Of a stretch of 64,000 nt of DNA, positions 6,843 to 62,200 are shown piece by piece. The translations under genes were made by a program, and so were the position numbers. The first letter of the stretch is position 1. Each line of letters begins with the position of its first letter. Under the pieces are notes generated by a model, which worked only from the letters and a program-made list of their open reading frames with translations, had not been told where the DNA came from and did no database searches. Source of the stretch: an uncultured Candidatus Saccharibacteria bacterium (lineage in GTDB: Bacteria; Patescibacteriota; Dojkabacteria; J137). The stretch spans positions 5,203 to 69,202 of the forward strand of contig CAYTGI010000005.1 of the NCBI GenBank assembly GCA_964437465.1, in the 5' to 3' direction.

Positions 6843-6862
6843 TTTTCAAAATATTGGTAATA

Positions 6863-7411
6863 TTTATTATGAAGAATGCACTAATCTTACATGGAACATC
6901 AGCTAACTCCTCTTCTAACTGGTTTCCTTGGTTAGGTGGAGAGTTAACTAAAAGAGGATACGAATGTCGAATTCCAGATCTTCCAAACGCTGATGAACCA
7001 GATCTAGCAATGTATTGGGATTATATTAAAGATTTTTCATTTAATGAGGATAGCTTAATTATTGGCCACAGCTCTGGAGCTGTTGCAGCTCTTGGAATAA
7101 TTCAGAAGTTTTGCGATGGGAGTTTTAACCCTAAAGTGAATAAAATAATTTTAGTTTCTGCATTTTCTAAAGATGAGGGATGGAAATGTGAGAAGATTTT
7201 GTGTGATTATGACTGGGATAAAATTAGGTCAGCTACGGATGAGATAATTCAAATTCATTCTGACGATGATCCTTATGTAAGCTTAGATAATGCTAAAGAG
7301 TTAGCAAAAAATCTAGAGATTCCGATAATACTCTACCCTGAAAAAGGTCATTTTAATACTGAGTACTCTGAAGAATTTACAAAGTTTCCTGAGATTTTGG
7401 GTTGGATTTAG
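6863..7411 (+). CDS. Alpha/beta serine hydrolase, RBBP9/YdeN family
   Basis: ILHGTS..NWFPWL, nucleophile elbow GHSSG, and HSDDD...GHF catalytic motifs. Confidence 0.7.
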   Translation, partial: FIMKNALILHGTSANSSSNWFPWLGGELTKRGYECRIPDLPNADEPDLAMYWDYIKDFSFNEDSLIIGHSSGAVAALGIIQKFCDGSFNPKVNKIILVSAFSKDEGWKCEKILCDYDWDKIRSATDEIIQIHSDDDPYVSLDNAKELAKNLEIPIILYPEKGHFNTEYSEEFTKFPEILGWI

Positions 7412-16941: not shown

Positions 16942-19194
16942 TTAATCAAATTTAATACTTTGTATTATTTGATCACATTCTGAGTAGTTATTATTGTTAG
17001 AAGAACAAGAAGCTACTAGTAACTTGTTTGAATCGTTTAAGTATCTAAAACTAGATTCAGCACAATCATTTTCCCTTGGAGCAACAATAGCTGGACAGTT
17101 GTTATCTAAGTAAACTTTATCTGTGTAGAAAACTGAATTTGTATCATTAAAGCTTACTCGATATAATTCTCCTACATTATCAATTTCTCCTATTAAAACA
17201 TAATCAGCAACTATATTTGGGTATGCCTCATAAGGAATTCCAATATCTAAAGTACTGTTCTCAGTACTAATTGTAATTCCATCAAGGTAAGTAGAATTTT
17301 CTACCACATTAAATCCGCTTGGAACAGAGAGATTATAATATTTTAACATAGCCCCAAGTGAATCTACAAAATCTTCAGTAGAAATAGTATAGGTTGTGCC
17401 ATAAGAAATTGGCTCGCCACTTAAATATCTCAAACTATTTAAAATCTCAATGACTGCTTCAAGATTTAATTCATCTACTCCTCTAACACTTACAGTACCA
17501 ACATTAACCTCAATTCCTCCAAAAATTCTTCCATTACCTTCACATAAACTAATATCTGAGTATATCTGTTGATTAACGTTGATTGGTTTTTGAGTACCAT
17601 TACATCGTCCGTCATTAGCTCTATTTGTAACAAAAAATGACAGACCATCCCCAGCAAAAGTTAGATTACTTCCTCCTTCATCTCCTGTCCCTTGAGTCTC
17701 ACAAGACCAGTTTTCAGGGATTGAGAATCCAATACCAAGAACAGAATCGTTACAAACTTTGGTAGCCTTTTCAACTTCTCCAATAGCTTCTATACTATTG
17801 AAAAATTCGATAGCCTCTTGATTATCATTTAAGAATGTATCGATCTCAATAACTTTATTTCCATATTGAAATAAATATTTATTAGGGAAGAAATCGGCTA
17901 TTCCAACAATACCTAACTTTGTAACATTTGTACCAAAAAGAGTAATCTCTTCTTGGGCGGTTATTCCATAGTTAGCTATACCTGTTGGTTGCTCAGCATA
18001 AATCCTCTCAAGCTCACTTATTCTATTTTGAACAGCTCCGTTACTATATGTAACTAGTACAAGAGACTCATCTACACAACCAAGTCCACATGGAAACCCA
18101 ACAAATCTTTCAGGAGTATAGAAAATTGTCAATGAATTACCATTCTCAAACTCGTTTTCTTGTATAACAAAGAATTTATTTTCAGTTGTAAATTGATCCT
18201 CCCCAGTTATAAATTCAATACCTTCATAGCTATCTTGTTTTGGTAAATTAAAGCTAATACCGTATTCTTCATAGGTGAATTTTTCAAAGGAAGTATTTAT
18301 TTCATTATCTTCATCCTGTTCTTGAACAATAGGGGTTGGCTCAGGTTCTGGGGCAGGCTGATTGTTATTAACAGCAACAGCACCAATGCCAATTCCAGCA
18401 CTTGCAAGTAAAATAGAACTACCAGCTATAATTTTAGCTGTTGTTGTGGCTAGTAAACCTCCACTAGCAGAGGCTGTAGCAACAGAACTTCCAGAAGAAG
18501 CTCCAATAGCGGCACCTGCAGCAGCACCAGTTAAATTTGTCATATTTGTTAAAGTAACACCTAAAGTAGATCCAACAGCTGAAGCAATAGCAGCCGAGCT
18601 CGAAGCGGTCATTGCATAAGCAGGTTGGACAGAAACACCTAATATTCCAGCTAGAATAATAGGTATAGAAACAGTTTTTAAAGCTAGAGATTTTTCTTCT
18701 CTAGAGACTGACAATTTAAGATCTTCAATCCCTCTATAAAATCTTTTCTTAACAGAATCAACACCCATTTCAACAATTGAAGCTATTTCATTAAAGCTCA
18801 TTTCATCCCAGATTCTCATAATAATAATATCTGAGGTCACTTCATCCATATCTTTTAATTTTTCTTCAATGTATTCAATTGTTAACCCATTCACCACTTC
18901 ATCTTCGAATGAGCTCATGCTCTTCTCAACCTCTTCCTCGAAATTTTCTGTATGAGTAGTATCTTTCGTGCTTTTTTTAGTTTGTTGGTTATAAATCATA
19001 TTTCGACTTACTTTAAAGAGCCAAGCTCTTTTGTTTTCAATAAAATCAAATTCCTCATTTTCAAATAAAGCAATAAACGCTTCAGATGCAATATCTTGAG
19101 CTTCTTCATTATTTCCAAGCCGAAACTTACAAAATCTGAAAATTTCAGGTGAATGCTCTTTATATACTTTTTCGAAAACTTGTTCTTTGTTCAT
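16942..19194 (-). CDS. ECF sigma factor fused through TM / low-complexity segment(s) to a large C-terminal domain
   Basis: Sigma70 region 2 (FRFCKFRLGNNEEAQDIASEAF) and region 4 (IIIMRIWDEMSFNEIASIVEMGVDSVKKRF), then a hydrophobic, Ala/Gly/Ser-rich segment and a ~480-aa domain. Confidence 0.7.
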   Translation of the reverse strand: MNKEQVFEKVYKEHSPEIFRFCKFRLGNNEEAQDIASEAFIALFENEEFDFIENKRAWLFKVSRNMIYNQQTKKSTKDTTHTENFEEEVEKSMSSFEDEVVNGLTIEYIEEKLKDMDEVTSDIIIMRIWDEMSFNEIASIVEMGVDSVKKRFYRGIEDLKLSVSREEKSLALKTVSIPIILAGILGVSVQPAYAMTASSSAAIASAVGSTLGVTLTNMTNLTGAAAGAAIGASSGSSVATASASGGLLATTTAKIIAGSSILLASAGIGIGAVAVNNNQPAPEPEPTPIVQEQDEDNEINTSFEKFTYEEYGISFNLPKQDSYEGIEFITGEDQFTTENKFFVIQENEFENGNSLTIFYTPERFVGFPCGLGCVDESLVLVTYSNGAVQNRISELERIYAEQPTGIANYGITAQEEITLFGTNVTKLGIVGIADFFPNKYLFQYGNKVIEIDTFLNDNQEAIEFFNSIEAIGEVEKATKVCNDSVLGIGFSIPENWSCETQGTGDEGGSNLTFAGDGLSFFVTNRANDGRCNGTQKPINVNQQIYSDISLCEGNGRIFGGIEVNVGTVSVRGVDELNLEAVIEILNSLRYLSGEPISYGTTYTISTEDFVDSLGAMLKYYNLSVPSGFNVVENSTYLDGITISTENSTLDIGIPYEAYPNIVADYVLIGEIDNVGELYRVSFNDTNSVFYTDKVYLDNNCPAIVAPRENDCAESSFRYLNDSNKLLVASCSSNNNNYSECDQIIQSIKFD

Positions 19195-45294: not shown

Positions 45295-48200
45295 TTTAAG
45301 ACGTACACTTTTAACGTTTATTTCGCATGCTTAGTTTTTTTACTATCAGCATCTAGTATTGAGGCTGCAAGCAATACAATAGATTTTCAAGGAAAGATAG
45401 TGAATAAAGGTGATGGAACGAATTTAGTGTCTGGAAGTCCTGCATGTGTAGTAGTTGGGGCAGATACTTGTGATTTTAGAGTAAGAGTTTACGATGCTTC
45501 TAGTGGTGGAAACTTACTTTTTGAAGAAGAACATACAAATTTAGAGATTGGAGATTACAATGGGATTTTTAATTTAAGTATTAATAGTATCTGTGCTTCT
45601 ACTCTGAGTGGTGGAGTTGATTGGGGAACAGGAGGATGTATTAGTAACGGTTGTGTAGATTTTAGTAGTACTAATGTGTATTTTGAGATAAGTTTTCACC
45701 TGCAGGAGATTCTACATACACAGAAACATTTACAAGAAAACAAATTAGCCAGACACCAAGCGCATATTATGCTGAAAGAGCGGGGAGTGTTGGTGATTTA
45801 AATGGATTTAATGAAACTGATTTTGTTCAGTTTGGTCAGGGTAGTACTCAAACAAGTACAAATACTAATGGTTTAATTAATATAACAACTACAGGTAATG
45901 TTGTTAGTCCTTTAATATTTCTTAATGAAAACTGGGCAGGTACTCCCCTACTTTTAGATTTACAGGAAGGGGGATCGACTCAATTCAGTATAGGAAATAA
46001 TGGAGTAATAACTTCTGATTCTTTAGCTGGAGGAGGGGTTCAATGTTTACAGTCAGATAACAGTGGGATAATCTCAGCTACGGGTTCAGCATGTGCGGGA
46101 AGTTCTCCCTGGACAATAGATATGAGTGACATTTACTATAACGGAGGAAATGTTGCTATTGGAACTGGAGCCCCAGGAGCCACTTTATTCCACGTTCAAG
46201 AAAATACTACAGGTTTACCAACATTTGGAAGCGACACTTCCTCTGCCTTTTCAAGTATTAATGACACGTATTTAGCTATAATTTCGGGAGCGGCGAATAT
46301 ATCTGGAATTAATTTTGGAGACAATAGTGATGAAAATCCTGGAATAATAGCGTATAACAATGCTTCAGATTCATTTGTGTTTACAACTGGAACATCAACA
46401 GCATTGACAATAGCTTCTGGGGGAGGACTTACTGCTAATAGTTTGGCTGGAGGTGGAACACAATGCTTGCAAGTAGATAATGCTGGATTAATTGCTGGAA
46501 GCGGTTCAGGATGTGCAACAAGTCTATGGACAGATGGAGGAACAACTACCTACTTAACTTCAACAACAGATGATGTTGCATTTGGAGGAACTGGAGGCTC
46601 TTCTCCATTCTTCTTTGATGTAAGTGATCCGTCGATAAATATTAATAGCACACAGGTTTTATACCTTCCAGATCAAACTACATTTGCGGGATCTTTGATT
46701 ATTGGTAATGGTGGGACTAGTTTGAGTACCTCCACTAATTCTACAGGTGTTGGTATTGGAGCTTTAACTAGCCTTTCATCTGGATCAAGTAACACAGCTG
46801 TTGGAACAAATTCATTGACATTAAACTCTACTGGAGCAACTAATGTTGCTATAGGAGCATCAGCTCTGTCTGGAATTGCTGATGGTTTTGCAAATGTTGC
46901 AGTAGGTACATTTTCAATGGAATTAAAGTCATCAGGAAATCACAATATAGCAATTGGAGGGCAATCGATGTATAGGAGTTTTTCAGGTGCAAATAATATA
47001 GCAGTTGGATCCTCCGCACTATATAATAATAGTTCAGATTCAAATGTGGGTATTGGATATAATGCAGGCTATAGAGTTAATGGAGATGATAATATTATTA
47101 TTGGAGATAATGCAGGAGCAGGTATTGGGTCATCGACAACTACGTACTCAATAAGTAATAACGTCTTGGTTGGGACAAGGGCAGGTCAGATAATGGGTAC
47201 TAATGCTAACAATAATATTTTAATTGGACATCAAGCAGGTAATAATTTATCTATTGGAGCTAACAATATTGTAATTGGGTATGACATCGATGCACCAAGC
47301 TCTTCAGGCTCAAATAGAATGAGTATTGGGAATATAATCTATGCAACAGGAGTTGATGGCACAGGGACAACAGTAAGTACAGGAAATCTTGGAATTGGGA
47401 TTGCAAATCCAGATAGTAATACTGAACTTCATATATACGATCCAGGAAACACAATACTGGGTATACAATCTGGGGCTCAGTCTATATGGGGTATAGAATC
47501 CTTATCAGCTTCTAATGCCATGAGGATTGGTAATTTAAATGGGGCTGTCCTAAACAATCATGTATATATAACTTCAGGAGGTAATGTTGGGATTGGGGAT
47601 GTTCCTTTAGATAAGCTACATGTATTTGGAGATGCTAGGGTTGGAACAGGAACAACTGGTTGTATTAAAGATGCAGATGGCACTACTATAGCAGGTACAT
47701 GTAGCTCTGATTTGAGATTAAAGGAAGAAATTAGAGGATTTGATTCAATATTAGAAAGATATGTACAATTAGAACCTGTATTTTATAAATGGCGATCTGA
47801 AGAATTCCCTGAATTACATCTTGGAACTAGTGAAATTAGTGGGTTAATTGCACAGAATGTTGAACAATTATTTCCAGAACTAGTTGCATATGATGAAGAT
47901 GGATTCAGACAAATTAATTTTTCAGCGATAGACTTTTATACAATTCAAGCAATAAAAGAACAGCAAGAACAAATTGATAGCTTACAGGCTCAACTGGCAA
48001 GTATTAGTAGTAATCCACCTGGATCACAACCATTAGAACATGCAATTTTAAACAATCTAACAATTAGAGAAAACTTGAACATAGAAGGAAAATTGAATCT
48101 TGCTGATGACTCAGCTGATGTAATAGAAATTCCTGCAGGAGATGTTGAGTTTTCTTATACATTTAACACCGCTTACTCCTCTACTCCTATTGTATCTATA

Positions 48201-48341
48201 ACTCCAATTTCTGAAGAGGTGCTTAGTGAAGGTATCGTTTATATTGTAACTAATTCTGATCAAAACGGTTTTACTATAAAATTAAATCAACCAGCATCAG
48301 TTAATATCTCTTTCAACTGGACTGCTTTTGGGGACCTTTAA
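45295..48341 (+). CDS. Giant tail-fibre-like surface protein, paralog A (frameshifted at the T4 run 45694-45697; no canonical start)
   Basis: The N-terminal domain is paralogous to 48421-53124 (GKIVNKGDGTN...CDFRVRVYDASSGGN). Reading T5 at 45694-45697 joins it to ORF 46122-48341. Contains Gly-rich N-x-A-I/V-G repeats and a C-terminal S74-like intramolecular chaperone motif, SDLRLKEEI...GLIAQNVE. Confidence 0.5.
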
Positions 48342-48420: not shown

Positions 48421-51400
48421 ATGTGTAGAGTAATGAATCAGATTAGTAACATAAAGCGTAAAAACAACGCTCTTTATTCAGGGTCTAAAAAAAGGCCTGT
48501 TTTAGCTCGTCAACACAAGTTTGCTATTCCATTAGCAATTTTATCTGGACTGCTATTTTTATTATTTATTCTTATAAACACAGGAGGGTTATATTCTTTC
48601 TTAAATATTTTCGCTGCTACAAGAACTATAAATTTTTCAGGAAAGATTGTTAATAAGGATGATGGAACTAATGTTGTTCTTGGTGATCCTGCTTGTGTTT
48701 TAGCAGGAGCAGATACATGTGATTTTAGAGTTAGAATTTTTGATGCAATAAGTGGAGGAAATCAGCTTTTCCAAGAAGATCATAATGATATTGAGATTGG
48801 TGATTTTACAGGAATATTTACTCTTGATATTAACTCAATTTGTAATTCTCAGGTAGTTGGAACAGTAGACTGGGCTACAACAGCTTGTGTAAGTAACGGA
48901 GGAGTTGATTTTAGTAGTTCAAGTATTTATATAGAGATCTCATTTTCTCCAGCTGGAGATGGAACTTATACTGAGGTTTTTGGAAGACGGGCTTTTAGTA
49001 ATACAGCGAGTGCATTTTTTGCCGAAAGAGCTGGAAGTTTGAATGGATTGACTAGTGATGATTTTGTTCAGCTAGCACAGGGAACCACTCAAGTTAACAG
49101 TGATGATTTTAGCTTAATAGATATTGAGACAACAGGAAATTTAACTGATCCTCTAATTGTTGTTAATGAGAATGGAGCGGGAACTCCTGACCTTTTTGAT
49201 TTTCAAGTGGGGGGGGACTCGATATTTACTTTAGATAACGATGGATTATTATCACTGTCAAATGATCAAGGGGTAACGAATTTAAGTATTGAAGAGTCAA
49301 ATGCAACTAACGATAACCGTACTTTATTAAGTTTAATAAACAATGGAGGAGCTATAATTTCTTTGGAAGATACTGATTCTTCAACGCAAGCTTGGAATAT
49401 CATAGGTAGTGATGAATTTACTATAAAGAACGATGCGACACCCGCAAATGACTTATTAAAAATCGATGATTTAGGCAACGCCTACATGTTTAATGGACTT
49501 ACTATTAATGATGGTTTTGATTCTTCTACAATCTCAGCTATTTTAAACTTTGGAGGCGCAAATACTGAAACAATTGAGTGGTCAGCTCCTAACAGTAGAT
49601 TTGAAATCTCCGACGATTTAGATGTGTTTAATAGCTTAACTGTAGGTGATAGTGTTGGAATTGGTACTCAAAGTCCTTCAGAAGCTTTAGATGTTGTGGG
49701 ATCTGTTCAGCTAAGTGGTGATATAAAAACTACTAACCCTTCTCAGTTATTACCAGCAAATTCTTTAGACTATGTGAAAAACATTCCTAATTCAAGAGGA
49801 GGAGTTTCAGGAGATCCAATAAGTCAGTTTGACTTTGAATTAACAGATAATGAGTACTTTTTAGTAGGAGCATTTAGTGGATCTGTTGATTTTGATACTG
49901 ATAATAGTATTCCTGGTGACACCTTAACAAGTCAAGGCACAGATGGTTTTATTGCAAAATACAATCTCAACGGAACTCTTCAATGGATAAAACAGATTGA
50001 GGGTTCATCCATTGAATCTGTCACAGAGGTAGAAACTGATTCAGCTGGAAATATATATGTCTTAGGTAATTTCTCTTCAAGTAATGTTGATATTGATCCA
50101 GATAACTCAGTTTCTGGAGATACCTTAAGTGAATCTGGAGGAAGAACATTTTTAGCAAAATATAATAGCTCAGGAGTTCTACAATGGGTTAAGCAGATGG
50201 GTCAAAGTGGATTTCTATACATAGTTGGGAATGACATGTACGTTAACGATTCAGGAGATATTCATTTCACTGGATATTTCTATGGAGGAATCTCAATAGA
50301 CTTCGATCCTGATAATGTAGTTGTTAACGATACTCATTCAACTACTAGTTTCACTGAAGGCGATGCTTTTTTAGCAAAATATAACACAAACGGTCTAATT
50401 CAATGGGTACATGCAATAGGGACAACAAATGACACCCTTCGAGACAGCGGTAAAAAAGTTTTTGCTGATTCCGGAGGAGATGTGATTCTTGTAGGTGATG
50501 CAAGTCAAGGATTATTTGATTTTGATGAATATAACGTAGGATCTGATGATACCTTTGACTTTTCGACCGGTGAAGGAATATTTATTGTTAAATATAATTC
50601 TTCTGGAGTTGCTCAATGGTCAAAAGGATTAATTGATAATGGTGGACAATTAAACTCTGGAGTAGTAATTGCTGATTCCTCAAATAATATCTACTACACA
50701 GGAGGCCTACAAGGCACATCAAATGACTTTGATGATGATAATGTTGTAGCTGGAGACACTTTAAACCAGATAAATGGGGTTGATTCATTTTTGGTGAAAT
50801 ATGACTCAAGTGGATTACTTCAATGGGCAAAAGCTTTGGATATCAGTAGAACCAATGCTTTAGACATAACACCTTCTGGAGAAGTTTTAGTTGGAGGTAC
50901 ATTTAATACGACTCCAGATTTTGATCCTGATAATGTTGTTAGCGGTGATACAGTTGCTGCAGTTGGTGTTAAAGATATATTTTTTGCTAAATACGATTCA
51001 ACAGGCCTTTTAACAGAGTTGAAAACTATAGGTACTTCAGGGCAAAATGCAAATTTATCTCATATTGCTATTGACTCAAGTTCAAATATATATACCCAAG
51101 CTTCTTACCTTGGTACTATCGATATGGACTCTGATATAGTTATTTCTGGAGATACTATTTCATCATCTACCACGAATGGATATTATATTGCTAGATATTC
51201 ATCATCTACTCAATCAATAGCAGGATCAAACATAGGATCGTCTTCTAGCCCTTTTGGAAATACATATACAAATGCTTTAAACATTTCCGCTATTACTGGA
51301 TCAACTCAATGTTTGGAGATAGACACAAATGGAAATGTATCTGGATCTGGAATTACTTGCGGAGGTCTTTGGACTGCAAACGGAAGCGATATTTACTACG

Positions 51401-53124
51401 ACTCAGGATATGTTGGTATTGGAATAACCGCTCCGACTTCACCGCTTACAATTGTTGAATCAACTAATGTATCCGCTTTAGATATTCAATCAACAGGAAT
51501 AACAGATAAACCATCTGTATCAATAAATGAGCTACCTCTCTCTGTTGATGTAAATACAGGTAAAGCACTTGAGTTTAAGGTGACTGGTGAATCTTTCGGA
51601 AGAGGAATGTTCTATTCTGACGGATCTATTGGATTTGGCGGGGGCACGGCTACAACAGATGTATTTTTAAACAGAGACTCAGCTGGAATTTTAAGGATAG
51701 ATTCAGATAAAGCTGGAGGAGCTGCTGACTTGTTAATTGAAGGAAGTCTTGGGATTGGAGACAACGTTACTCCTACAAACATGATTGACATCAATACAAC
51801 TGGGGCAACGAGGGGAATAAGTTTTGATGGACGGGTTGCAATTTCAGGTTACTCTGCTAGCTCTTACCTTTACTTGAATAATGGGAATAATTTTTCAGGA
51901 GGTGTATATGCCCCAAGCGATTTTATTGCAACTGAGATTAGAACAAGTACTACTGATTATGGGGCGTATGACATTCAGACACATGATGATTTGTATGTTA
52001 ATGATTTAGGGATATTTATGGGAGGTGTACACGTTGGAGGAACAAGTGATCCAGGAACAGATAATCTTATTGTTGATGGTAATGCCTCAATTGGTAATAC
52101 TTCTATATTAACTTCGGCCACTCTAAGGCTTGGAGATGATGGCTCGACTTATGGGCTTTTCATGGACTCCCCCAATGTTGCTACTGCCTCAACATATTAT
52201 GGATTATATGTAGACGAGATAGATGGTGGCATAACTAATAACTATGGAATGTATATTAGACCTATGACAGTATCCGGCTCAACCGCTTTTGGTGCAAGAA
52301 TTGGAGAGGTGTCAGGTGCAACTAATACCTACGGTTTATTTGTTGATGCAACATCCTCTCAAGACTACGGTGTATATATAGAAGGGTCCACAATGAGCGC
52401 TGGTCAATACTCGCTGTATGCAGAATTTGATATAAGAACTGAAGGACGATTTGAACTAGGAAATCCAGGTAGTGGAGGAGACGATGTTTGTAGAGTTGCC
52501 TCAAACCAAAGGTTATCTCTGTGTTCATCTAGTATAAGATATAAAGACAACGTTCTGGATTATTCAGGAGGATTAGATCTACTTAAACAATTTAGGTCTG
52601 TGTCTTTTGACTGGAAAGAGACAGGTATTTCGGATATGGGGTTTATTGCTGAAGAGGTTGAAGCAATAGAGCCCTTACTAGTATTTTATAGGGATGGTAA
52701 GGTTGAGGGAGTTAGATATAAACAGATGACAGCACTGATGAAAAATGCTGTTATCGAGATTGATGATAGACTTTTAGATGTCGAATCTAGATTAGATCTA
52801 CTTGCTGGAGGATCAGGAACGAGTGCTGTTACTTCCCTTACCGAAGCAATCATCACAGGAAAACTTACTGTAGATGGATTAGTTGATTTTAACGAGGATA
52901 CTGTTGCGACTGCTACAATTGGAAGTGGAGATACAGAAGTAGAGATCATTTTTAGTGAAAGCTACTCTACTCCACCTGTAATTACAGTTACACCAGAAGG
53001 TGAGGATTTTATTAATTCTGGAGTTACATATACAATTATAGATAAGGATGAGGATGGGTTTAAGATTAAGATCTCAGATCCATACACAGAAGATTTATTA
53101 TTTAACTGGCACGCATTTGAGTAA
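48421..53124 (+). CDS. Giant surface protein, paralog B: N-terminal domain, SBBP beta-propeller repeats, Gly-rich repeats, S74-like chaperone domain
   Basis: SBBP-type repeats (FIAKYNLNGTLQWIKQ, FLAKYNSSGVLQWVKQ, FLVKYDSSGLLQWAKA) and a C-terminal SSIRYKDNV...GFIAEEVEAIEP motif. The C-terminal domain is shared with paralog A. Confidence 0.6.
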   Translation: MCRVMNQISNIKRKNNALYSGSKKRPVLARQHKFAIPLAILSGLLFLLFILINTGGLYSFLNIFAATRTINFSGKIVNKDDGTNVVLGDPACVLAGADTCDFRVRIFDAISGGNQLFQEDHNDIEIGDFTGIFTLDINSICNSQVVGTVDWATTACVSNGGVDFSSSSIYIEISFSPAGDGTYTEVFGRRAFSNTASAFFAERAGSLNGLTSDDFVQLAQGTTQVNSDDFSLIDIETTGNLTDPLIVVNENGAGTPDLFDFQVGGDSIFTLDNDGLLSLSNDQGVTNLSIEESNATNDNRTLLSLINNGGAIISLEDTDSSTQAWNIIGSDEFTIKNDATPANDLLKIDDLGNAYMFNGLTINDGFDSSTISAILNFGGANTETIEWSAPNSRFEISDDLDVFNSLTVGDSVGIGTQSPSEALDVVGSVQLSGDIKTTNPSQLLPANSLDYVKNIPNSRGGVSGDPISQFDFELTDNEYFLVGAFSGSVDFDTDNSIPGDTLTSQGTDGFIAKYNLNGTLQWIKQIEGSSIESVTEVETDSAGNIYVLGNFSSSNVDIDPDNSVSGDTLSESGGRTFLAKYNSSGVLQWVKQMGQSGFLYIVGNDMYVNDSGDIHFTGYFYGGISIDFDPDNVVVNDTHSTTSFTEGDAFLAKYNTNGLIQWVHAIGTTNDTLRDSGKKVFADSGGDVILVGDASQGLFDFDEYNVGSDDTFDFSTGEGIFIVKYNSSGVAQWSKGLIDNGGQLNSGVVIADSSNNIYYTGGLQGTSNDFDDDNVVAGDTLNQINGVDSFLVKYDSSGLLQWAKALDISRTNALDITPSGEVLVGGTFNTTPDFDPDNVVSGDTVAAVGVKDIFFAKYDSTGLLTELKTIGTSGQNANLSHIAIDSSSNIYTQASYLGTIDMDSDIVISGDTISSSTTNGYYIARYSSSTQSIAGSNIGSSSSPFGNTYTNALNISAITGSTQCLEIDTNGNVSGSGITCGGLWTANGSDIYYDSGYVGIGITAPTSPLTIVESTNVSALDIQSTGITDKPSVSINELPLSVDVNTGKALEFKVTGESFGRGMFYSDGSIGFGGGTATTDVFLNRDSAGILRIDSDKAGGAADLLIEGSLGIGDNVTPTNMIDINTTGATRGISFDGRVAISGYSASSYLYLNNGNNFSGGVYAPSDFIATEIRTSTTDYGAYDIQTHDDLYVNDLGIFMGGVHVGGTSDPGTDNLIVDGNASIGNTSILTSATLRLGDDGSTYGLFMDSPNVATASTYYGLYVDEIDGGITNNYGMYIRPMTVSGSTAFGARIGEVSGATNTYGLFVDATSSQDYGVYIEGSTMSAGQYSLYAEFDIRTEGRFELGNPGSGGDDVCRVASNQRLSLCSSSIRYKDNVLDYSGGLDLLKQFRSVSFDWKETGISDMGFIAEEVEAIEPLLVFYRDGKVEGVRYKQMTALMKNAVIEIDDRLLDVESRLDLLAGGSGTSAVTSLTEAIITGKLTVDGLVDFNEDTVATATIGSGDTEVEIIFSESYSTPPVITVTPEGEDFINSGVTYTIIDKDEDGFKIKISDPYTEDLLFNWHAFE

Positions 53125-59295: not shown

Positions 59296-62200
59296 CTACC
59301 ACCTAGTATAAAGTAAACTCTCATGATCACCCTCCTCTTTTGGAATCTCCTGCCAGATCCTTTCACTAATAAAAGGCATAAACGGATGGAGCATTTTTAG
59401 ATATTCTTTAAGAGCAAGTAATAGAACTTTTTGAGCTTCTCTCTTCTCTTCTGGTTTAGCCTCACTAATAATTTCACCAGTTTCTTTATCCTTGAATGTG
59501 TAGATGAATGGTTTTAATGCTTCAATGTATACGTCAGCGAACTCATGCCAGAATCCTTGGTATAAATTATAAGTTGCATGTCCGAATTCAAACTCTTCAA
59601 TATTTTTTGTTATATGTTCTTTAGTCACCTTTACATGCTTAAATAACTTTTTTATTTCTTTAATTTTTAAATCACTCTCCTCTACTCCATAAACTGAGTG
59701 ATCAGCTTTATCCATATCCTCTAAATTCATTAGAACAAACCTTGAAGCATTCCAAATCTTATTGGCAAACTTTTTAAATGTATCTAATTTCTCATGAGTC
59801 ATAGAATAATCTCCTCCAGCTGAGTTTTGGTAGAAGAACACCATTCTAATTGCATCAGTACCGTACTTCTCTCTTAGATCATCAATATACAAAATATTAC
59901 CTTTAGACTTACTCATCTTCTGTCCATCGCTTGCCTTAACAAGACCTGTTAGGAAAAGATTTTTAAAAGGAATATTTCTGTATTTAAAGTAAGTAAACAT
60001 CATCATTCGACTATCCCAATTCTCTAGAATGTCATAAGCTGAAACTAAAACATCACTTGGGAAGAATGTATCCATTAAGTCATATTTACTTAATGTAGCG
60101 TAAACCCACTGACCAGAGCTGAACCAAGTGTCGAGAACGTTTTCGTCTTGGTTCCATTCGGAAGTTGTAAGTTTTGAGTTATGAGTTTCGAGTATTGAGA
60201 ATAGCTTCTCAGAGTAACTACTTGAGTCTTCAGATGCATAATGACCTTTACCTTTTTCTAAGATTACTTGGTCAGCGTTAACTAATTCACCAAATTTTTT
60301 AAACTCTTCTACTGTTCCATGCCGATCATTATCTGAGTGTATTATTATTATTTCTCCGACATATTTTCTTATGTTTTCATAATCTTCAGTTTCTGTTATT
60401 AGTTCTACATATTTACTATCCTTACCATCTTCTCTTGGAACCATTCTGATTCCTGGAGCAAGCATAATTAACTTATTTACTTTAATTTTATTTTCTAAAC
60501 AATATTTAATAAATGCTCTAGCACCAAGAGAATGAGTAACTATTATATCCTTATCAGTAAATTCTATATCATCAAAACCTTCTTTGTAGAATTTATATTC
60601 AGGATTATGAATATTCTTTACAGGAATAATCTCAGTATTATCAAACTTTGCCTCAATCTCTGGATAAATATCTCTGTATGCATAGCCATGTTTCCCAGGT
60701 ATTAAAATAATCTTGCTGTCTGATAACTTGTCAGGACTTTCTTTCTGTACTCTTAAATGATTAGGATTATCGTACTCAAGCTCTACCCACTCATCAGTAC
60801 CTGAAATTTTAATCATCTCACGGACTTGACCGTCAGATCCGATATCTTCTTTAACTTCGCCATGGTACCAAACAGGAAGTCTATAACCCCACCATAATGA
60901 TCTCGATATCGCCCAGTCTCTAAGGTTATTCATCCAGTGGTTATATTTTGAAGTCATTGATTCAGGGTGTAGGGTGATTGCTAACTTATCTGAATCTTTT
61001 TGAGAGGACAAACCATGGTTTGTCCCTACAAGCTTAGAGGAAGCGTTAAATATTTCAATTGCCTGATCAATTTCTTTATCACTCATATCTAAATTAGAAT
61101 CATCTCCATGAACATTTTTAATCATCTTTATAGCAGCTTCTCTAATTCCGTCATATTTTAAGTACCACTGAGAAGATAGGAGAGGCTCGATTGGAGCTTT
61201 TGTTCGCTCAGCTATTTGAATTCTATTTTCATATTTCTCATCAACAAAAACTAAGTTTCCATGTTCCTTCATATCGGGACGCATCTCTTCTCTTGCATTC
61301 TTAGCCTTAATTCCTGAGTATTTCCCAGCAAGGTCATTAAGCTTTAAATCGTAGCCAATAACTTGGATTGCAGGTAAACATTCTTTAGGATGTCTTTGAC
61401 CTATCTCCCAATCCTCTGGAGAGTGGGCAGGGGTAACTTTTAGAAGACCTGTTCCAAAGTCTTTATCTACAGCATAGTCAGAGATAAAGTTTAGCTTTTT
61501 CTTTTCTCCTAAGAACTCAACCTCAATTTCTTTTCCAACAAAATCTTTATATCTTTCATCTTTTGGATCGCACGCGATAGCAGTATCAGCAAAAATAGTC
61601 TCAGGTCTTACAGTTCCAATTACAAATCCATTTCGATAATACTTATCTTCTGAATACTCTTCGAACTTAATTATGTGCGAGCCTGGATAATACTTTGATT
61701 CAAAGTTAAAAATCTCAAAGATTTCTGAATCAAGATCTTCATCAAAGCTCTCGTTAACTATGACGATTTTGTAATTTTCATCTAAGCTCATATGAACTCC
61801 GATTGCTTTTCCAGTTACATCATTATCAATATCTTCGTCAGTGTATCCAATTCCGATAACAGGTAGTCCTTCCTCAGTTTCTCCATGCATAAATGGAAGA
61901 TCATTTTTCTTGTCTTTTGTTTTATTTCTTAATGCTTTAAATGCGACATTTTTGCCTTCATACTTTTGTTTTATCTCCAAAACTTCTTTGACTGGTTCTC
62001 CAATTAAATATTTAAAGTAGAAAAACGGAGTAACTGAATCTTTATACTCTACCTGATTATCAGCAACTGCTGATCTAGCTTTTGGATCCCAATTTACTAA
62101 CCGAACTCCTTTATAGATCATTCCATCTTTATACATTTCAATGAATGTATCTAAAACAATCTCAACAATATCTGGATCAAGGGTAAATGTATTTTTATCA

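Follow-up and report, generated by a model that had tools for sequence, protein, structure and literature searches.

The valyl-tRNA synthetase (ValRS) encoded in the 64,000-nucleotide stretch of Dojkabacteria DNA analysed here (the window) carries an in-frame insert at the tip of its CP3 hairpin, which structure prediction and sequence comparison confirm to be an independently folding serine hydrolase of the YdeN/RBBP9 family with an intact catalytic triad. On balance, the module is best read as an autonomous hydrolase nested in CP3, and as one of a set of enzyme modules nested in proteins across the CPR. Few enzymes have been studied as intensively as the aminoacyl-tRNA synthetases (aaRS), whose insertion modules serve as evidence on how the genetic code evolved in its early stages. 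In one large bacterial radiation, aaRS appear still to acquire, lose, and swap such modules today. Whole unrelated enzymes can occupy CP3 and other connective loops with the synthetase motifs undamaged, and the occupied loops show where nature tolerates insertions in ValRS, IleRS, and LeuRS, a map of use in protein engineering. The CPR habit of nesting small enzymes inside large essential proteins is apparently undescribed: full-text literature searches turned up no paper describing either a nested hydrolase in ValRS or CPR-wide module nesting, in agreement with the original prediction, which had called a hydrolase within a class I aaRS undescribed. Cultivated Saccharibacteria carry related IleRS variants, and experiments are therefore feasible.

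The synthetase and its CP3 insert

The host protein has the core signatures of a class Ia ValRS. Pfam domains tRNA-synt_1 (PF00133, E 1.4e-93) and Anticodon_1 (PF08264, E 1.1e-21), the latter the helical anticodon-binding domain, are both present, and the closest solved structure is the ValRS of T. thermophilus (1GAX, E 2.6e-101, four collinear segments), with IleRS as the second-ranked PDB relative (1e-38). The HIGH-type signature occurs as HIGN (aa 68-71), a motif located in the window's ValRS only (for most homologues the search pattern did not work), and KMSKS (aa 918-922) is found in 120 of 120 ValRS homologues. By its sequence, the CP1 editing domain appears to be retained, with the T-rich motif TVRPET (aa 353-358), a GTG..K.TPAH..D motif that includes the universal Asp (GTGLLKVTPAHSPED, aa 406-420), and a match to the ValRS editing-domain structure 1WKA (E 5e-22). 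The earlier claim that CP1 and KMSKS are intact thus holds, and the gene probably encodes a working class Ia ValRS. KMSKS and the CP1 editing motifs are equally conserved in hydrolase-bearing and hydrolase-free ValRS; for this reason, compensation by the hydrolase for a decayed CP1 editing site was rejected.

Table 1. Positions of the ValRS gene, its nested module, and the stand-alone paralogue within the window
Feature	Positions	Strand	Basis
ValRS gene (host protein), 1124 aa	59296..62670	minus	ORF; Pfam; PDB 1GAX match; NCBI protein P0002, 100% identical
CP3 hairpin N-terminal arm, aa 603-646 (HGEVKED...HLRVQKESP)	60733..60864	minus	residue-for-residue alignment with insert-free P0003, P0004, P0007, P0018
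Nested YdeN/RBBP9-type alpha/beta serine hydrolase module, aa 647-838	60157..60732	minus	junctions, AF2, Foldseek, profile, Pfam
CP3 C-terminal arm and start of second Rossmann half, aa 839-852, WNQDENVLDTWFSS	60115..60156	minus	conserved in all 120 homologues
Predicted nucleophile Ser714 codon (elbow T-H-S-L-G)	60529..60531	minus	invariant column S67, alignment A1
Predicted triad acid Asp782 codon (HSDND)	60325..60327	minus	invariant column D135, alignment A1
Predicted triad His810 codon (GKGHY)	60241..60243	minus	invariant column H163, alignment A1
Stand-alone PF06821 serine hydrolase paralogue, 185 aa, separate from ValRS in the same genome	6854..7411	plus	Pfam E 1.2e-15

The motifs WWGYRLPVWY (aa 593-602) and DTWFSS (aa 847-852) are 254 residues apart in the window's ValRS, compared with 61-66 residues in most insert-free Dojkabacteria ValRS and ~30 in Thermus. 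The original prediction gave a normal spacing of ~40 aa and an insertion of ~240 aa at 60136-60864; the insertion is real, but the spacing usual in this lineage is about 63 aa, and the claimed span is the whole inter-motif segment. About 44 aa before the insert (aa 603-646) form the CP3 hairpin that is normal for the lineage, a name that follows PMC7191050 and PMC10810186. The insert itself is 192 aa long (DKLSDSK...KLTTSE) and stands in place of the 3-residue “GEG” turn of the empty-site protein P0003, a net gain of 189 aa, so that the alignment proposed earlier fixes the insertion point at the tip of the hairpin, in a surface loop of ValRS. Short linkers of about 6-8 residues join the hydrolase to CP3. 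CP3 is structurally variable in topology and Zn binding, and its Zn site is often lost (PMC7191050, PMC10810186); in the window's ValRS, the N-terminal arm is without the Zn-knuckle cysteines. Both arms align as P0003-like and are unlike those of other carriers, and transfer of a whole CP3 by recombination with another hydrolase-bearing ValRS was rejected on these grounds. No target-site duplications are visible at the DNA junctions, although with synonymous sites saturated their absence carries no information. The GC3 of the insert (0.20) lies about 2 SD from that of the host (0.277±0.036) and slightly under every equal-length segment of the host gene (0.22-0.35), an offset too weak for a foreign origin to be called.

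As a single sequence, the insert scores borderline against Pfam PF06821 (22.3 bits, cut-off 22.0, E 1.4e-4), so the HMM search suggested in the original prediction passes narrowly in that form and is strong with a profile of embedded copies. The profile, built from 22 embedded copies and the window's stand-alone paralogue, matches the PDB entries of YdeN (E 6.5e-16) and RBBP9 (E 4.5e-11). The AF2 model of the insert (pLDDT 93.6, pTM 0.91) has as its top Foldseek matches 1UXO (YdeN, TM 0.82) and RBBP9 (TM 0.80), and predicts a compact, lid-less alpha/beta-hydrolase fold of about 180-190 aa. Because the profile matches are joined by the superposition of the AF2 model, the likeness is not due to chance; the embedded YdeN/RBBP9-family hydrolase and its independent folding, both anticipated from the sequence, are borne out. 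Known aaRS editing and trans-editing families (CP1, YbaK/INS, AlaX, DTD) are missing from the top fold and profile matches, all of which are alpha/beta hydrolases. This mismatch lowers the case for membership in such a family and says nothing about working like one.

The predicted triad residues Ser714, Asp782, and His810 lie in the THSLG, HSDND, and GKGHY motifs quoted in the original prediction, all of which are present. All three residues are invariant across the 22 embedded copies and the free paralogue (alignment A1; 24-57% identity to the window's module) and are the sole invariant polar residues in these 23 sequences. At the elbow, most embedded copies have a small residue (Thr, Ala, Ser, or Cys) in place of the first Gly of G-x-S-x-G; the second Gly is retained in the T-H-S-L-G of the window's module. 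Judged by this conservation, the nested hydrolase is most likely catalytically active. An R-[ED]-x-[KR]-D...Y loop that is conserved in the modules aligns, with uncertainty, near Glu108 of RBBP9, the residue that anchors the substrate amine. Valacyclovir is the L-valyl ester of a nucleoside analogue. RBBP9 activates this compound, according to Shenoy et al. 2020 as cited in PMC7730578, and is an aminopeptidase for hydrophobic N-terminal residues that cleaves hydrophobic aminoacyl groups with a free amine (PMC8866121). By analogy, the nested enzyme would probably cleave alpha-aminoacyl amides or esters of hydrophobic amino acids with a free amine.

An assembly chimera, an intein, or another self-splicing insertion absent from the mature protein would agree with the patchy presence of the insert among close relatives and with its slightly low GC3. 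The reading frame is, however, continuous through the insert, and the predicted fold is that of a complete alpha/beta hydrolase. The insert begins at Asp647 and ends with Ser-Glu838 ahead of Trp839, without the Cys/Ser...His-Asn-Cys/Ser/Thr residues of splicing, and a Pfam scan gave no match to an intein Hint family at E<=0.1; an intein was rejected on this evidence together with the hydrolase fold. Misassembly was rejected because identical in-frame junctions are seen in over 20 proteins that come from independent assemblies (NCBI, JGI, ENA, and Logan). Both sources of error had been raised in the original prediction, and such an explanation is effectively refuted.

Nested modules in relatives and in other proteins

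Among the 120 closest Dojkabacteria ValRS, 46 are longer by 150-390 aa between WWG and DTWFSS. The added residues form one or two modules in each, of hydrolase (H), histidine phosphatase (P), GNAT (G), or HAD-like (D) type, placed at two sub-sites ~20 residues apart in the architectures H, P, H+P, H+H, G, G+D, G+P, G..H, and G..P. Insertion at this loop is shared with other CPR ValRS, a point that the original prediction had left to be checked, and the loop does not hold the hydrolase alone. Roughly one in five close relatives carries the hydrolase, which is missing from the closest: the site is empty in the sister protein P0003 (75% identity) and in P0004 and P0007, the relatives that follow it, and relatives without the insert need only a 3-residue turn at the insertion point. 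In all likelihood, close relatives gain, lose, and exchange modules.

Members of this hydrolase family are likewise nested inside CPR IleRS and LeuRS, at several different sites, and inside UvrB, SecA, Der/EngA, a GT2 glycosyltransferase, and an HD-domain fusion. In ValRS, IleRS, and LeuRS, the nested copies always lie within the connective-peptide region between the Rossmann halves. These three synthetases account for 17 of the 19 hydrolase matches longer than 700 aa and for three of the ten mid-size matches that were checked. IleRS of Saccharibacteria and Nomurabacteria hold up to four nested enzymes and reach 1895 aa. Nested modules of the serine hydrolase, histidine phosphatase, GNAT, HAD, NUDIX, LMW phosphatase, and Ham1 families were observed. 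In addition, P0024 contains a nested DUF559/Vsr-like domain, a lead towards a candidate endonuclease associated with the insertions.

The stand-alone hydrolase belongs to the same family as the insert, as the original prediction stated: PF06821 is found in both, and the two are 28% identical (BLASTP, E 5e-12). In neighbour-joining trees, which are rough at the 25-45% identity of these sequences, the stand-alone protein falls among free-standing hydrolases, far from the ValRS-embedded clade. Because the tree places the two copies far apart and their identity is low, a recent duplication of the genome's own free hydrolase into ValRS was rejected as the source of the embedded copy. The ValRS-embedded modules form one clade with conserved features of its own (PGKHGY, Y48), which suggests specialisation to the ValRS host. 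LeuRS-nested modules trace to several separate free-standing lineages. Host and module distances correlate with a Mantel r of 0.38, and in P0006 the host is 68% identical to the window's ValRS and the module just 29% identical; by these sequence distances, the two histories appear only loosely coupled. A word-index search with the insert alone found one free-standing homologue, and a single-protein genome scan found one Dojkabacteria locus.

Possible roles of the nested hydrolase

The explanation that we lean towards begins with the CP3 hairpin tip, part of a variable connective subdomain before the second Rossmann half, which would have been swapped for a complete YdeN/RBBP9-family hydrolase. 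More generally, several CPR/Patescibacteria lineages would harbour small, compact housekeeping enzymes, one at a time or in tandem, within tolerant loops of their large essential proteins, above all in the connective-peptide regions of ValRS, IleRS, and LeuRS. The hydrolase would be co-expressed with ValRS and tethered to it, and valylation and CP1 editing would proceed independently of it. The original prediction offered two options, of which a domesticated insertion comes closer to this account, although the wider modular phenomenon was not seen.

Its other option was an added trans-editing or deacylating activity. In a developed form, the hydrolase would be an extra quality-control module that hydrolyses aminoacyl esters made by its host, and thereby a second, CP1-independent site of proofreading or clean-up; candidate substrates would be mischarged or surplus aminoacyl-tRNA(Val), esters derived from released aminoacyl-adenylate, and homocysteine thiolactone from class Ia editing. 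The reported activation of an L-valyl ester by RBBP9, the repeated nesting of the family in the connective-peptide regions of ValRS, IleRS, and LeuRS, the several separate origins of the LeuRS modules, and the conserved loop tentatively aligned near Glu108 all agree with such a role, but UvrB, SecA, Der/EngA, and GT2 carry the same module and none of them handles aminoacyl esters. The ValRS loop of relatives holds phosphatases and acetyltransferases instead, the closest relatives live without the insert, and the CP1 motifs are undegraded where the hydrolase is present. As originally stated, the activity is not supported, and the developed form is unlikely. A dedicated tRNA-editing role is possible but not favoured, because the same loop hosts unrelated enzymes and the same hydrolase is nested in non-tRNA proteins; it is kept alive by the preference of RBBP9 for hydrophobic aminoacyl groups with a free amine and by its action on valacyclovir. 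Enrichment in ValRS, IleRS, and LeuRS, the makers of hydrophobic aminoacyl esters, could reflect functional coupling rather than permissiveness alone. An RBBP9-like hydrolase tethered to these enzymes might provide a new proofreading or salvage route in organisms with minimal genomes.

Aminopeptidase activity of the RBBP9 kind (PMC8866121) might alternatively free N-terminal Val, Ile, and Leu from scavenged peptides beside the synthetase that consumes them, a benefit to an auxotrophic episymbiont. The aaRS hosts are exactly the branched-chain amino acid synthetases, and CPR bacteria are metabolically sparse (PMC6744442). Such a supply role is nevertheless improbable, given the non-aaRS hosts and the free paralogue in the same genome; a free amino acid would also diffuse away, and therefore tethering would gain little kinetically. 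Still less probable is that the module is a pseudo-enzyme serving as a scaffold or tRNA-binding surface in place of the lost Zn knuckle. The variability of CP3 and the frequent loss of its Zn site (PMC7191050, PMC10810186) would allow this, as would the substituted first Gly of the elbow, but the restriction of polar invariance to Ser, Asp, and His over such divergent sequences and the sufficiency of a 3-residue turn in insert-free relatives argue against it.

Beyond the preferred account of autonomous nesting, a more speculative and rather doubtful proposal is that CPR bacteria have an as yet undescribed system of interchangeable enzyme cassettes, repeatedly inserted in frame at a few loops of class Ia synthetases and other NTP-using essential proteins. 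Its cassettes may comprise the YdeN-type aminoacyl hydrolase, histidine phosphatase, GNAT, HAD, NUDIX, LMW phosphatase, and Ham1. Two non-exclusive reasons could underlie it: a dedicated insertion or recombination mechanism, and a tethered “clean-up hub” on the synthetase for by-products and mis-made aminoacyl esters, in which the ValRS hydrolase would be the CP1-independent second proofreading site for valyl-type esters.

Comparison with known systems

YdeN of B. subtilis (1UXO) and human RBBP9 (2QS9, 7OEX, 9FCR), members of PF06821 (Ser_hydrolase/DUF1234), share with the window's module the predicted lid-less fold of about 185 aa (TM 0.80-0.82) and the order of the Ser-Asp-His triad, at an identity of only 15-16%. 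In contrast to these free-standing enzymes, the module is nested in frame inside another enzyme, has T-H-S-L-G where known PF06821 members have G-H-S-x-G, and has PGKHGY after strand 1 in place of the usual HG.

The CP1 domain of ValRS, IleRS, and LeuRS and the YbaK-like INS domain of bacterial ProRS are, like the insert, whole hydrolytic domains nested in an aaRS catalytic core. Their folds are unrelated to the alpha/beta serine hydrolase, which, unlike them, is not universal in its host synthetase family and is exchangeable with non-hydrolase modules. That the insertion point of CP1 varies with the LeuRS type (PMC10810186) implies that the connective-peptide region took up modules in the past. 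The CP3/Zn knuckle of T. thermophilus ValRS and IleRS occupies the same chain position as the insert, between CP2 and the DTWFSS strand; Thermus CP3 carries the knuckle, whereas the CP3 of the window's ValRS has no cysteines and forms a hairpin of ~50 aa with the enzyme at its tip. Eukaryotic aaRS carry appended domains (GST, WHEP, EMAPII, UNE) and form bifunctional fusions (e.g., GluProRS), and likewise serve as carriers of functions beyond aminoacylation. As a rule, these appended domains sit at the termini, are not enzymes, and are inherited stably, whereas the CPR modules are internal, enzymatic, combinatorial, and patchy. The nested modules also expose a set of mis-annotated database entries, among them a ValRS entered as “HAD-IA family hydrolase” and an IleRS entered as “GNAT family N-acetyltransferase.”

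The host synthetase and its insertion site

The 1124-aa ORF is assigned unambiguously, by sequence, to the class Ia valyl-tRNA synthetases (ValRS): Pfam detects tRNA-synt_1 (E 1.4e-93) and Anticodon_1 (E 1.1e-21), and T. thermophilus ValRS (PDB 1GAX) matches in four collinear blocks (E 2.6e-101). Compared with the Thermus enzyme, the window's ValRS has three additional segments (aa ~221-348, ~518-569, and ~603-840), the third being the region flagged by the original prediction. The window's ValRS retains an intact KMSKS, a HIGH signature in the form HIGN, and intact CP1 editing motifs (TVRPET and GTGLLKVTPAHSPED), in agreement with the earlier claim for CP1 and KMSKS.

Features of the window, with the basis of each assignment
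Feature	Protein position	Window position	Strand	Basis or content
ValRS ORF, 1124 aa		59296-62670	minus	class Ia ValRS by Pfam and PDB match
Hydrolase insert, DKLSDSK...KLTTSE	aa 647-838	60157-60732	minus	alignment with insert-free relatives
Additional 43-aa ValRS segment	aa 520-563	60982-61113	minus	between CP1 and CP2
Free-standing PF06821 serine hydrolase		6854-7411		Pfam E 1.2e-15
750-aa ORF		16942-19194	minus	sigma-70 regions 2 and 4 in first ~160 residues
739-aa ORF		46122-48341	plus	C-terminal Peptidase_S74
1567-aa ORF		48421-53124	plus	C-terminal Peptidase_S74

The comparison set comprises the 120 best ValRS homologues, and those with names are all "Candidatus Dojkabacteria" (CPR/Patescibacteria). 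The distance from WWGYRLPVWY (aa 593-602) to DTWFSS (aa 847-852) is 254 residues in the window, as against 61-66 in most insert-free homologues; the spacing is thus far longer than normal, as predicted, but the norm is not the ~40 aa first proposed. Boundaries were set by alignment with the closest relatives (P0003, P0004, and P0007), all insert-free, of which P0003 is 75% identical to the window's ValRS. The predicted insertion between conserved motifs is present, but the ~44 residues following VWY (HGEVKED...HLRVQKESP) are the ordinary cysteine-free CP3 hairpin of this lineage, and only the insert, which replaces a three-residue "GEG" turn, is truly extra. The site lies in the CP3 subdomain, between CP2 and the second half of the Rossmann fold; both the topology and the zinc binding of CP3 are known to vary (PMC7191050, PMC10810186). 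GC3 of the insert, computed on a slightly wider range (aa 647-840), is 0.20, about 2 SD low and below every host-gene window of the same size (0.22-0.35; mean 0.277).

An assembly artefact, which the original prediction had named as a possible source of a chimeric gene, is excluded: the reading frame is unbroken, an identical protein is present in NCBI, and over 20 proteins, drawn from NCBI, JGI, ENA, and Logan assemblies, share the same in-frame junctions. An intein is likewise excluded. A Pfam search of the ValRS finds no Hint domain, and splice residues are absent because the insert runs from Asp to a Ser-Glu that precedes Trp.

Identity of the nested hydrolase

Every hydrolase motif quoted in the original prediction is found between WWGYRLPVWY and DTWFSS: THSLG (Ser714, the nucleophile elbow), HSDND (Asp782), and GKGHY (His810). 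As a single sequence the insert is a borderline match to Pfam PF06821 (Ser_hydrolase), scoring 22.3 bits where the cut-off is 22. When 22 ValRS-embedded copies are aligned with the free paralogue of the window, only five columns are invariant, and the triad Ser, Asp, and His make up three of them. A profile of these 23 sequences matches B. subtilis YdeN (E 6.5e-16) and human RBBP9 (E 4.5e-11). AlphaFold2 predicts a confident alpha/beta fold for the insert alone (pLDDT 93.6, pTM 0.91), and the best PDB matches of this model are again YdeN (TM 0.82) and RBBP9 (TM 0.80). Given the triad invariance, profile matches, predicted fold, and structural matches, the proposed assignment to the PF06821 (YdeN/RBBP9) family is correct, and the domain appears competent for catalysis. 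The free-standing hydrolase of the window clearly belongs to the same family, as noted earlier; it shares 28% identity with the insert and is distant from it in a neighbour-joining tree, and recent duplication of this gene is therefore not the source of the insert.

Interchangeable modules in ValRS and other hosts

When all 120 homologues are mapped onto an HMM built from insert-free ValRS, 46 have 150-390 additional residues in the CP3 loop. Module HMMs distinguish four families there: the hydrolase, a histidine phosphatase (PF00300), GNAT, and a HAD-like module. These sit at two sub-sites, ~20 residues from each other, and in some proteins both are filled: site A, within the hairpin, holds chiefly GNAT or HAD-like modules and at times the phosphatase, and site B, at its tip, holds the hydrolase, the phosphatase, one of each, or two hydrolases. 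The hydrolase occurs in 22 of the 120 ValRS, 11 of which pair it with the phosphatase. Near CP1, ValRS homologue P0073 has a HAD module (aa ~340-430) and P0024 a DUF559/Vsr-like endonuclease domain (aa ~250-410), a possible lead to a mobility mechanism. Most relatives lack the 43-aa segment; its position is, by alignment, a third insertion hotspot because homologue P0038 holds a ~194-aa insertion with GNAT there.

Architectures are distributed patchily over the ValRS-core tree, where the sister of the window's protein has no insert at all. Module and host divergence correlate only loosely (Mantel r 0.38), with gross discordances: in P0006, for instance, the host shares 68% identity with that of the window but the hydrolase only 29%. 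The CP3 arms of the window's ValRS resemble those of its insert-free sister. These patterns indicate repeated gain, loss, or replacement at one spot rather than a single ancient insertion.

An exhaustive HMMER search with the insert over 1.8 billion representative proteins returns mostly free-standing proteins of ~185 aa and many long ones. Class Ia synthetases, including ValRS, IleRS, and LeuRS, account for 17 of the 19 matches longer than 700 aa. Hydrolase-bearing IleRS often has a histidine phosphatase too, and in LeuRS the hydrolase precedes or follows the editing domain, at times as two copies or together with NUDIX or Ham1 (P0249 and P0261). Among the remaining long matches and those of middle size, PF06821 is nested in UvrB, SecA, Der/EngA (separating its two GTPase domains), and a GT2 glycosyltransferase, and it also occurs in an HD-domain fusion (P0252, P0198, P0174/P0205, P0141, and P0197). 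A search seeded with one hydrolase-bearing IleRS finds enzymes of up to 1895 aa from Candidatus Saccharibacteria (including oral taxon 488) and Nomurabacteria; about 40 of 120 matches contain PF06821, and others NUDIX, LMW phosphatase, GNAT, or histidine phosphatase. All four of the latter are nested in the 1895-aa Saccharibacteria-type IleRS P0266. In rough, distance-based trees of these divergent sequences, ValRS-embedded hydrolases form one clade adjoining the IleRS-embedded ones, and those of LeuRS, UvrB, SecA, and Der are scattered among free-standing proteins. Their database names reveal mis-annotation: "HAD-IA family hydrolase" is given to a 1275-aa ValRS, and "GNAT family N-acetyltransferase" to a 1358-aa IleRS.

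Domain insertion into synthetases is itself familiar from CP1, the ProRS INS domain, and eukaryotic appended domains. The CPR insertions are modular, combinatorial, and recent, which is their surprising aspect. The full-text literature searched, mostly non-subscription papers, yielded no description of hydrolase or other enzyme domains nested in CPR synthetases, consistent with the novelty originally claimed.

Possible function of the nested hydrolase

The intact ValRS core, self-folding hydrolase, short linkers, hairpin-tip location, strict triad conservation, and interchange with unrelated enzymes suggest that the protein is bifunctional: an active hydrolase of the YdeN/RBBP9 type would be co-expressed with and tethered to a ValRS that does not depend on it. 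The arrangement would be one outcome of a habit shared by several CPR lineages, whose large essential proteins harbour compact housekeeping enzymes in their permissive loops. This reading is somewhat probable. The original prediction offered an added trans-editing or deacylating activity, or else a domesticated insertion. Valacyclovir is a valyl ester. An analogy with RBBP9, identified as a valacyclovir-activating enzyme (Shenoy et al. 2020, cited in PMC7730578), favors the deacylase role, as does the strong enrichment of Val, Ile, and Leu synthetases among hydrolase hosts. However, UvrB, SecA, Der/EngA, and GT2 have no tRNA role, non-hydrolase modules fill the same ValRS loop, the closest relatives lack the insert, and the CP1 motifs are undiminished, all of which count against coupling to tRNA; the deacylase keeps a low but real probability. 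An aminopeptidase "supply" role is weaker still and improbable, and a pseudo-enzyme is unlikely because the triad is conserved. The autonomous, tethered hydrolase is preferred here.

Elsewhere in the window, the 750-aa ORF is by its domains an unusually long sigma-factor-like protein, the remaining ~590 aa of which have no Pfam match. The 739- and 1567-aa ORFs, which are adjacent to each other, match Pfam solely in their C-terminal Peptidase_S74 intramolecular-chaperone domain, as found in tail-spike or fibre-like proteins, and may be surface fibres or prophage-derived.
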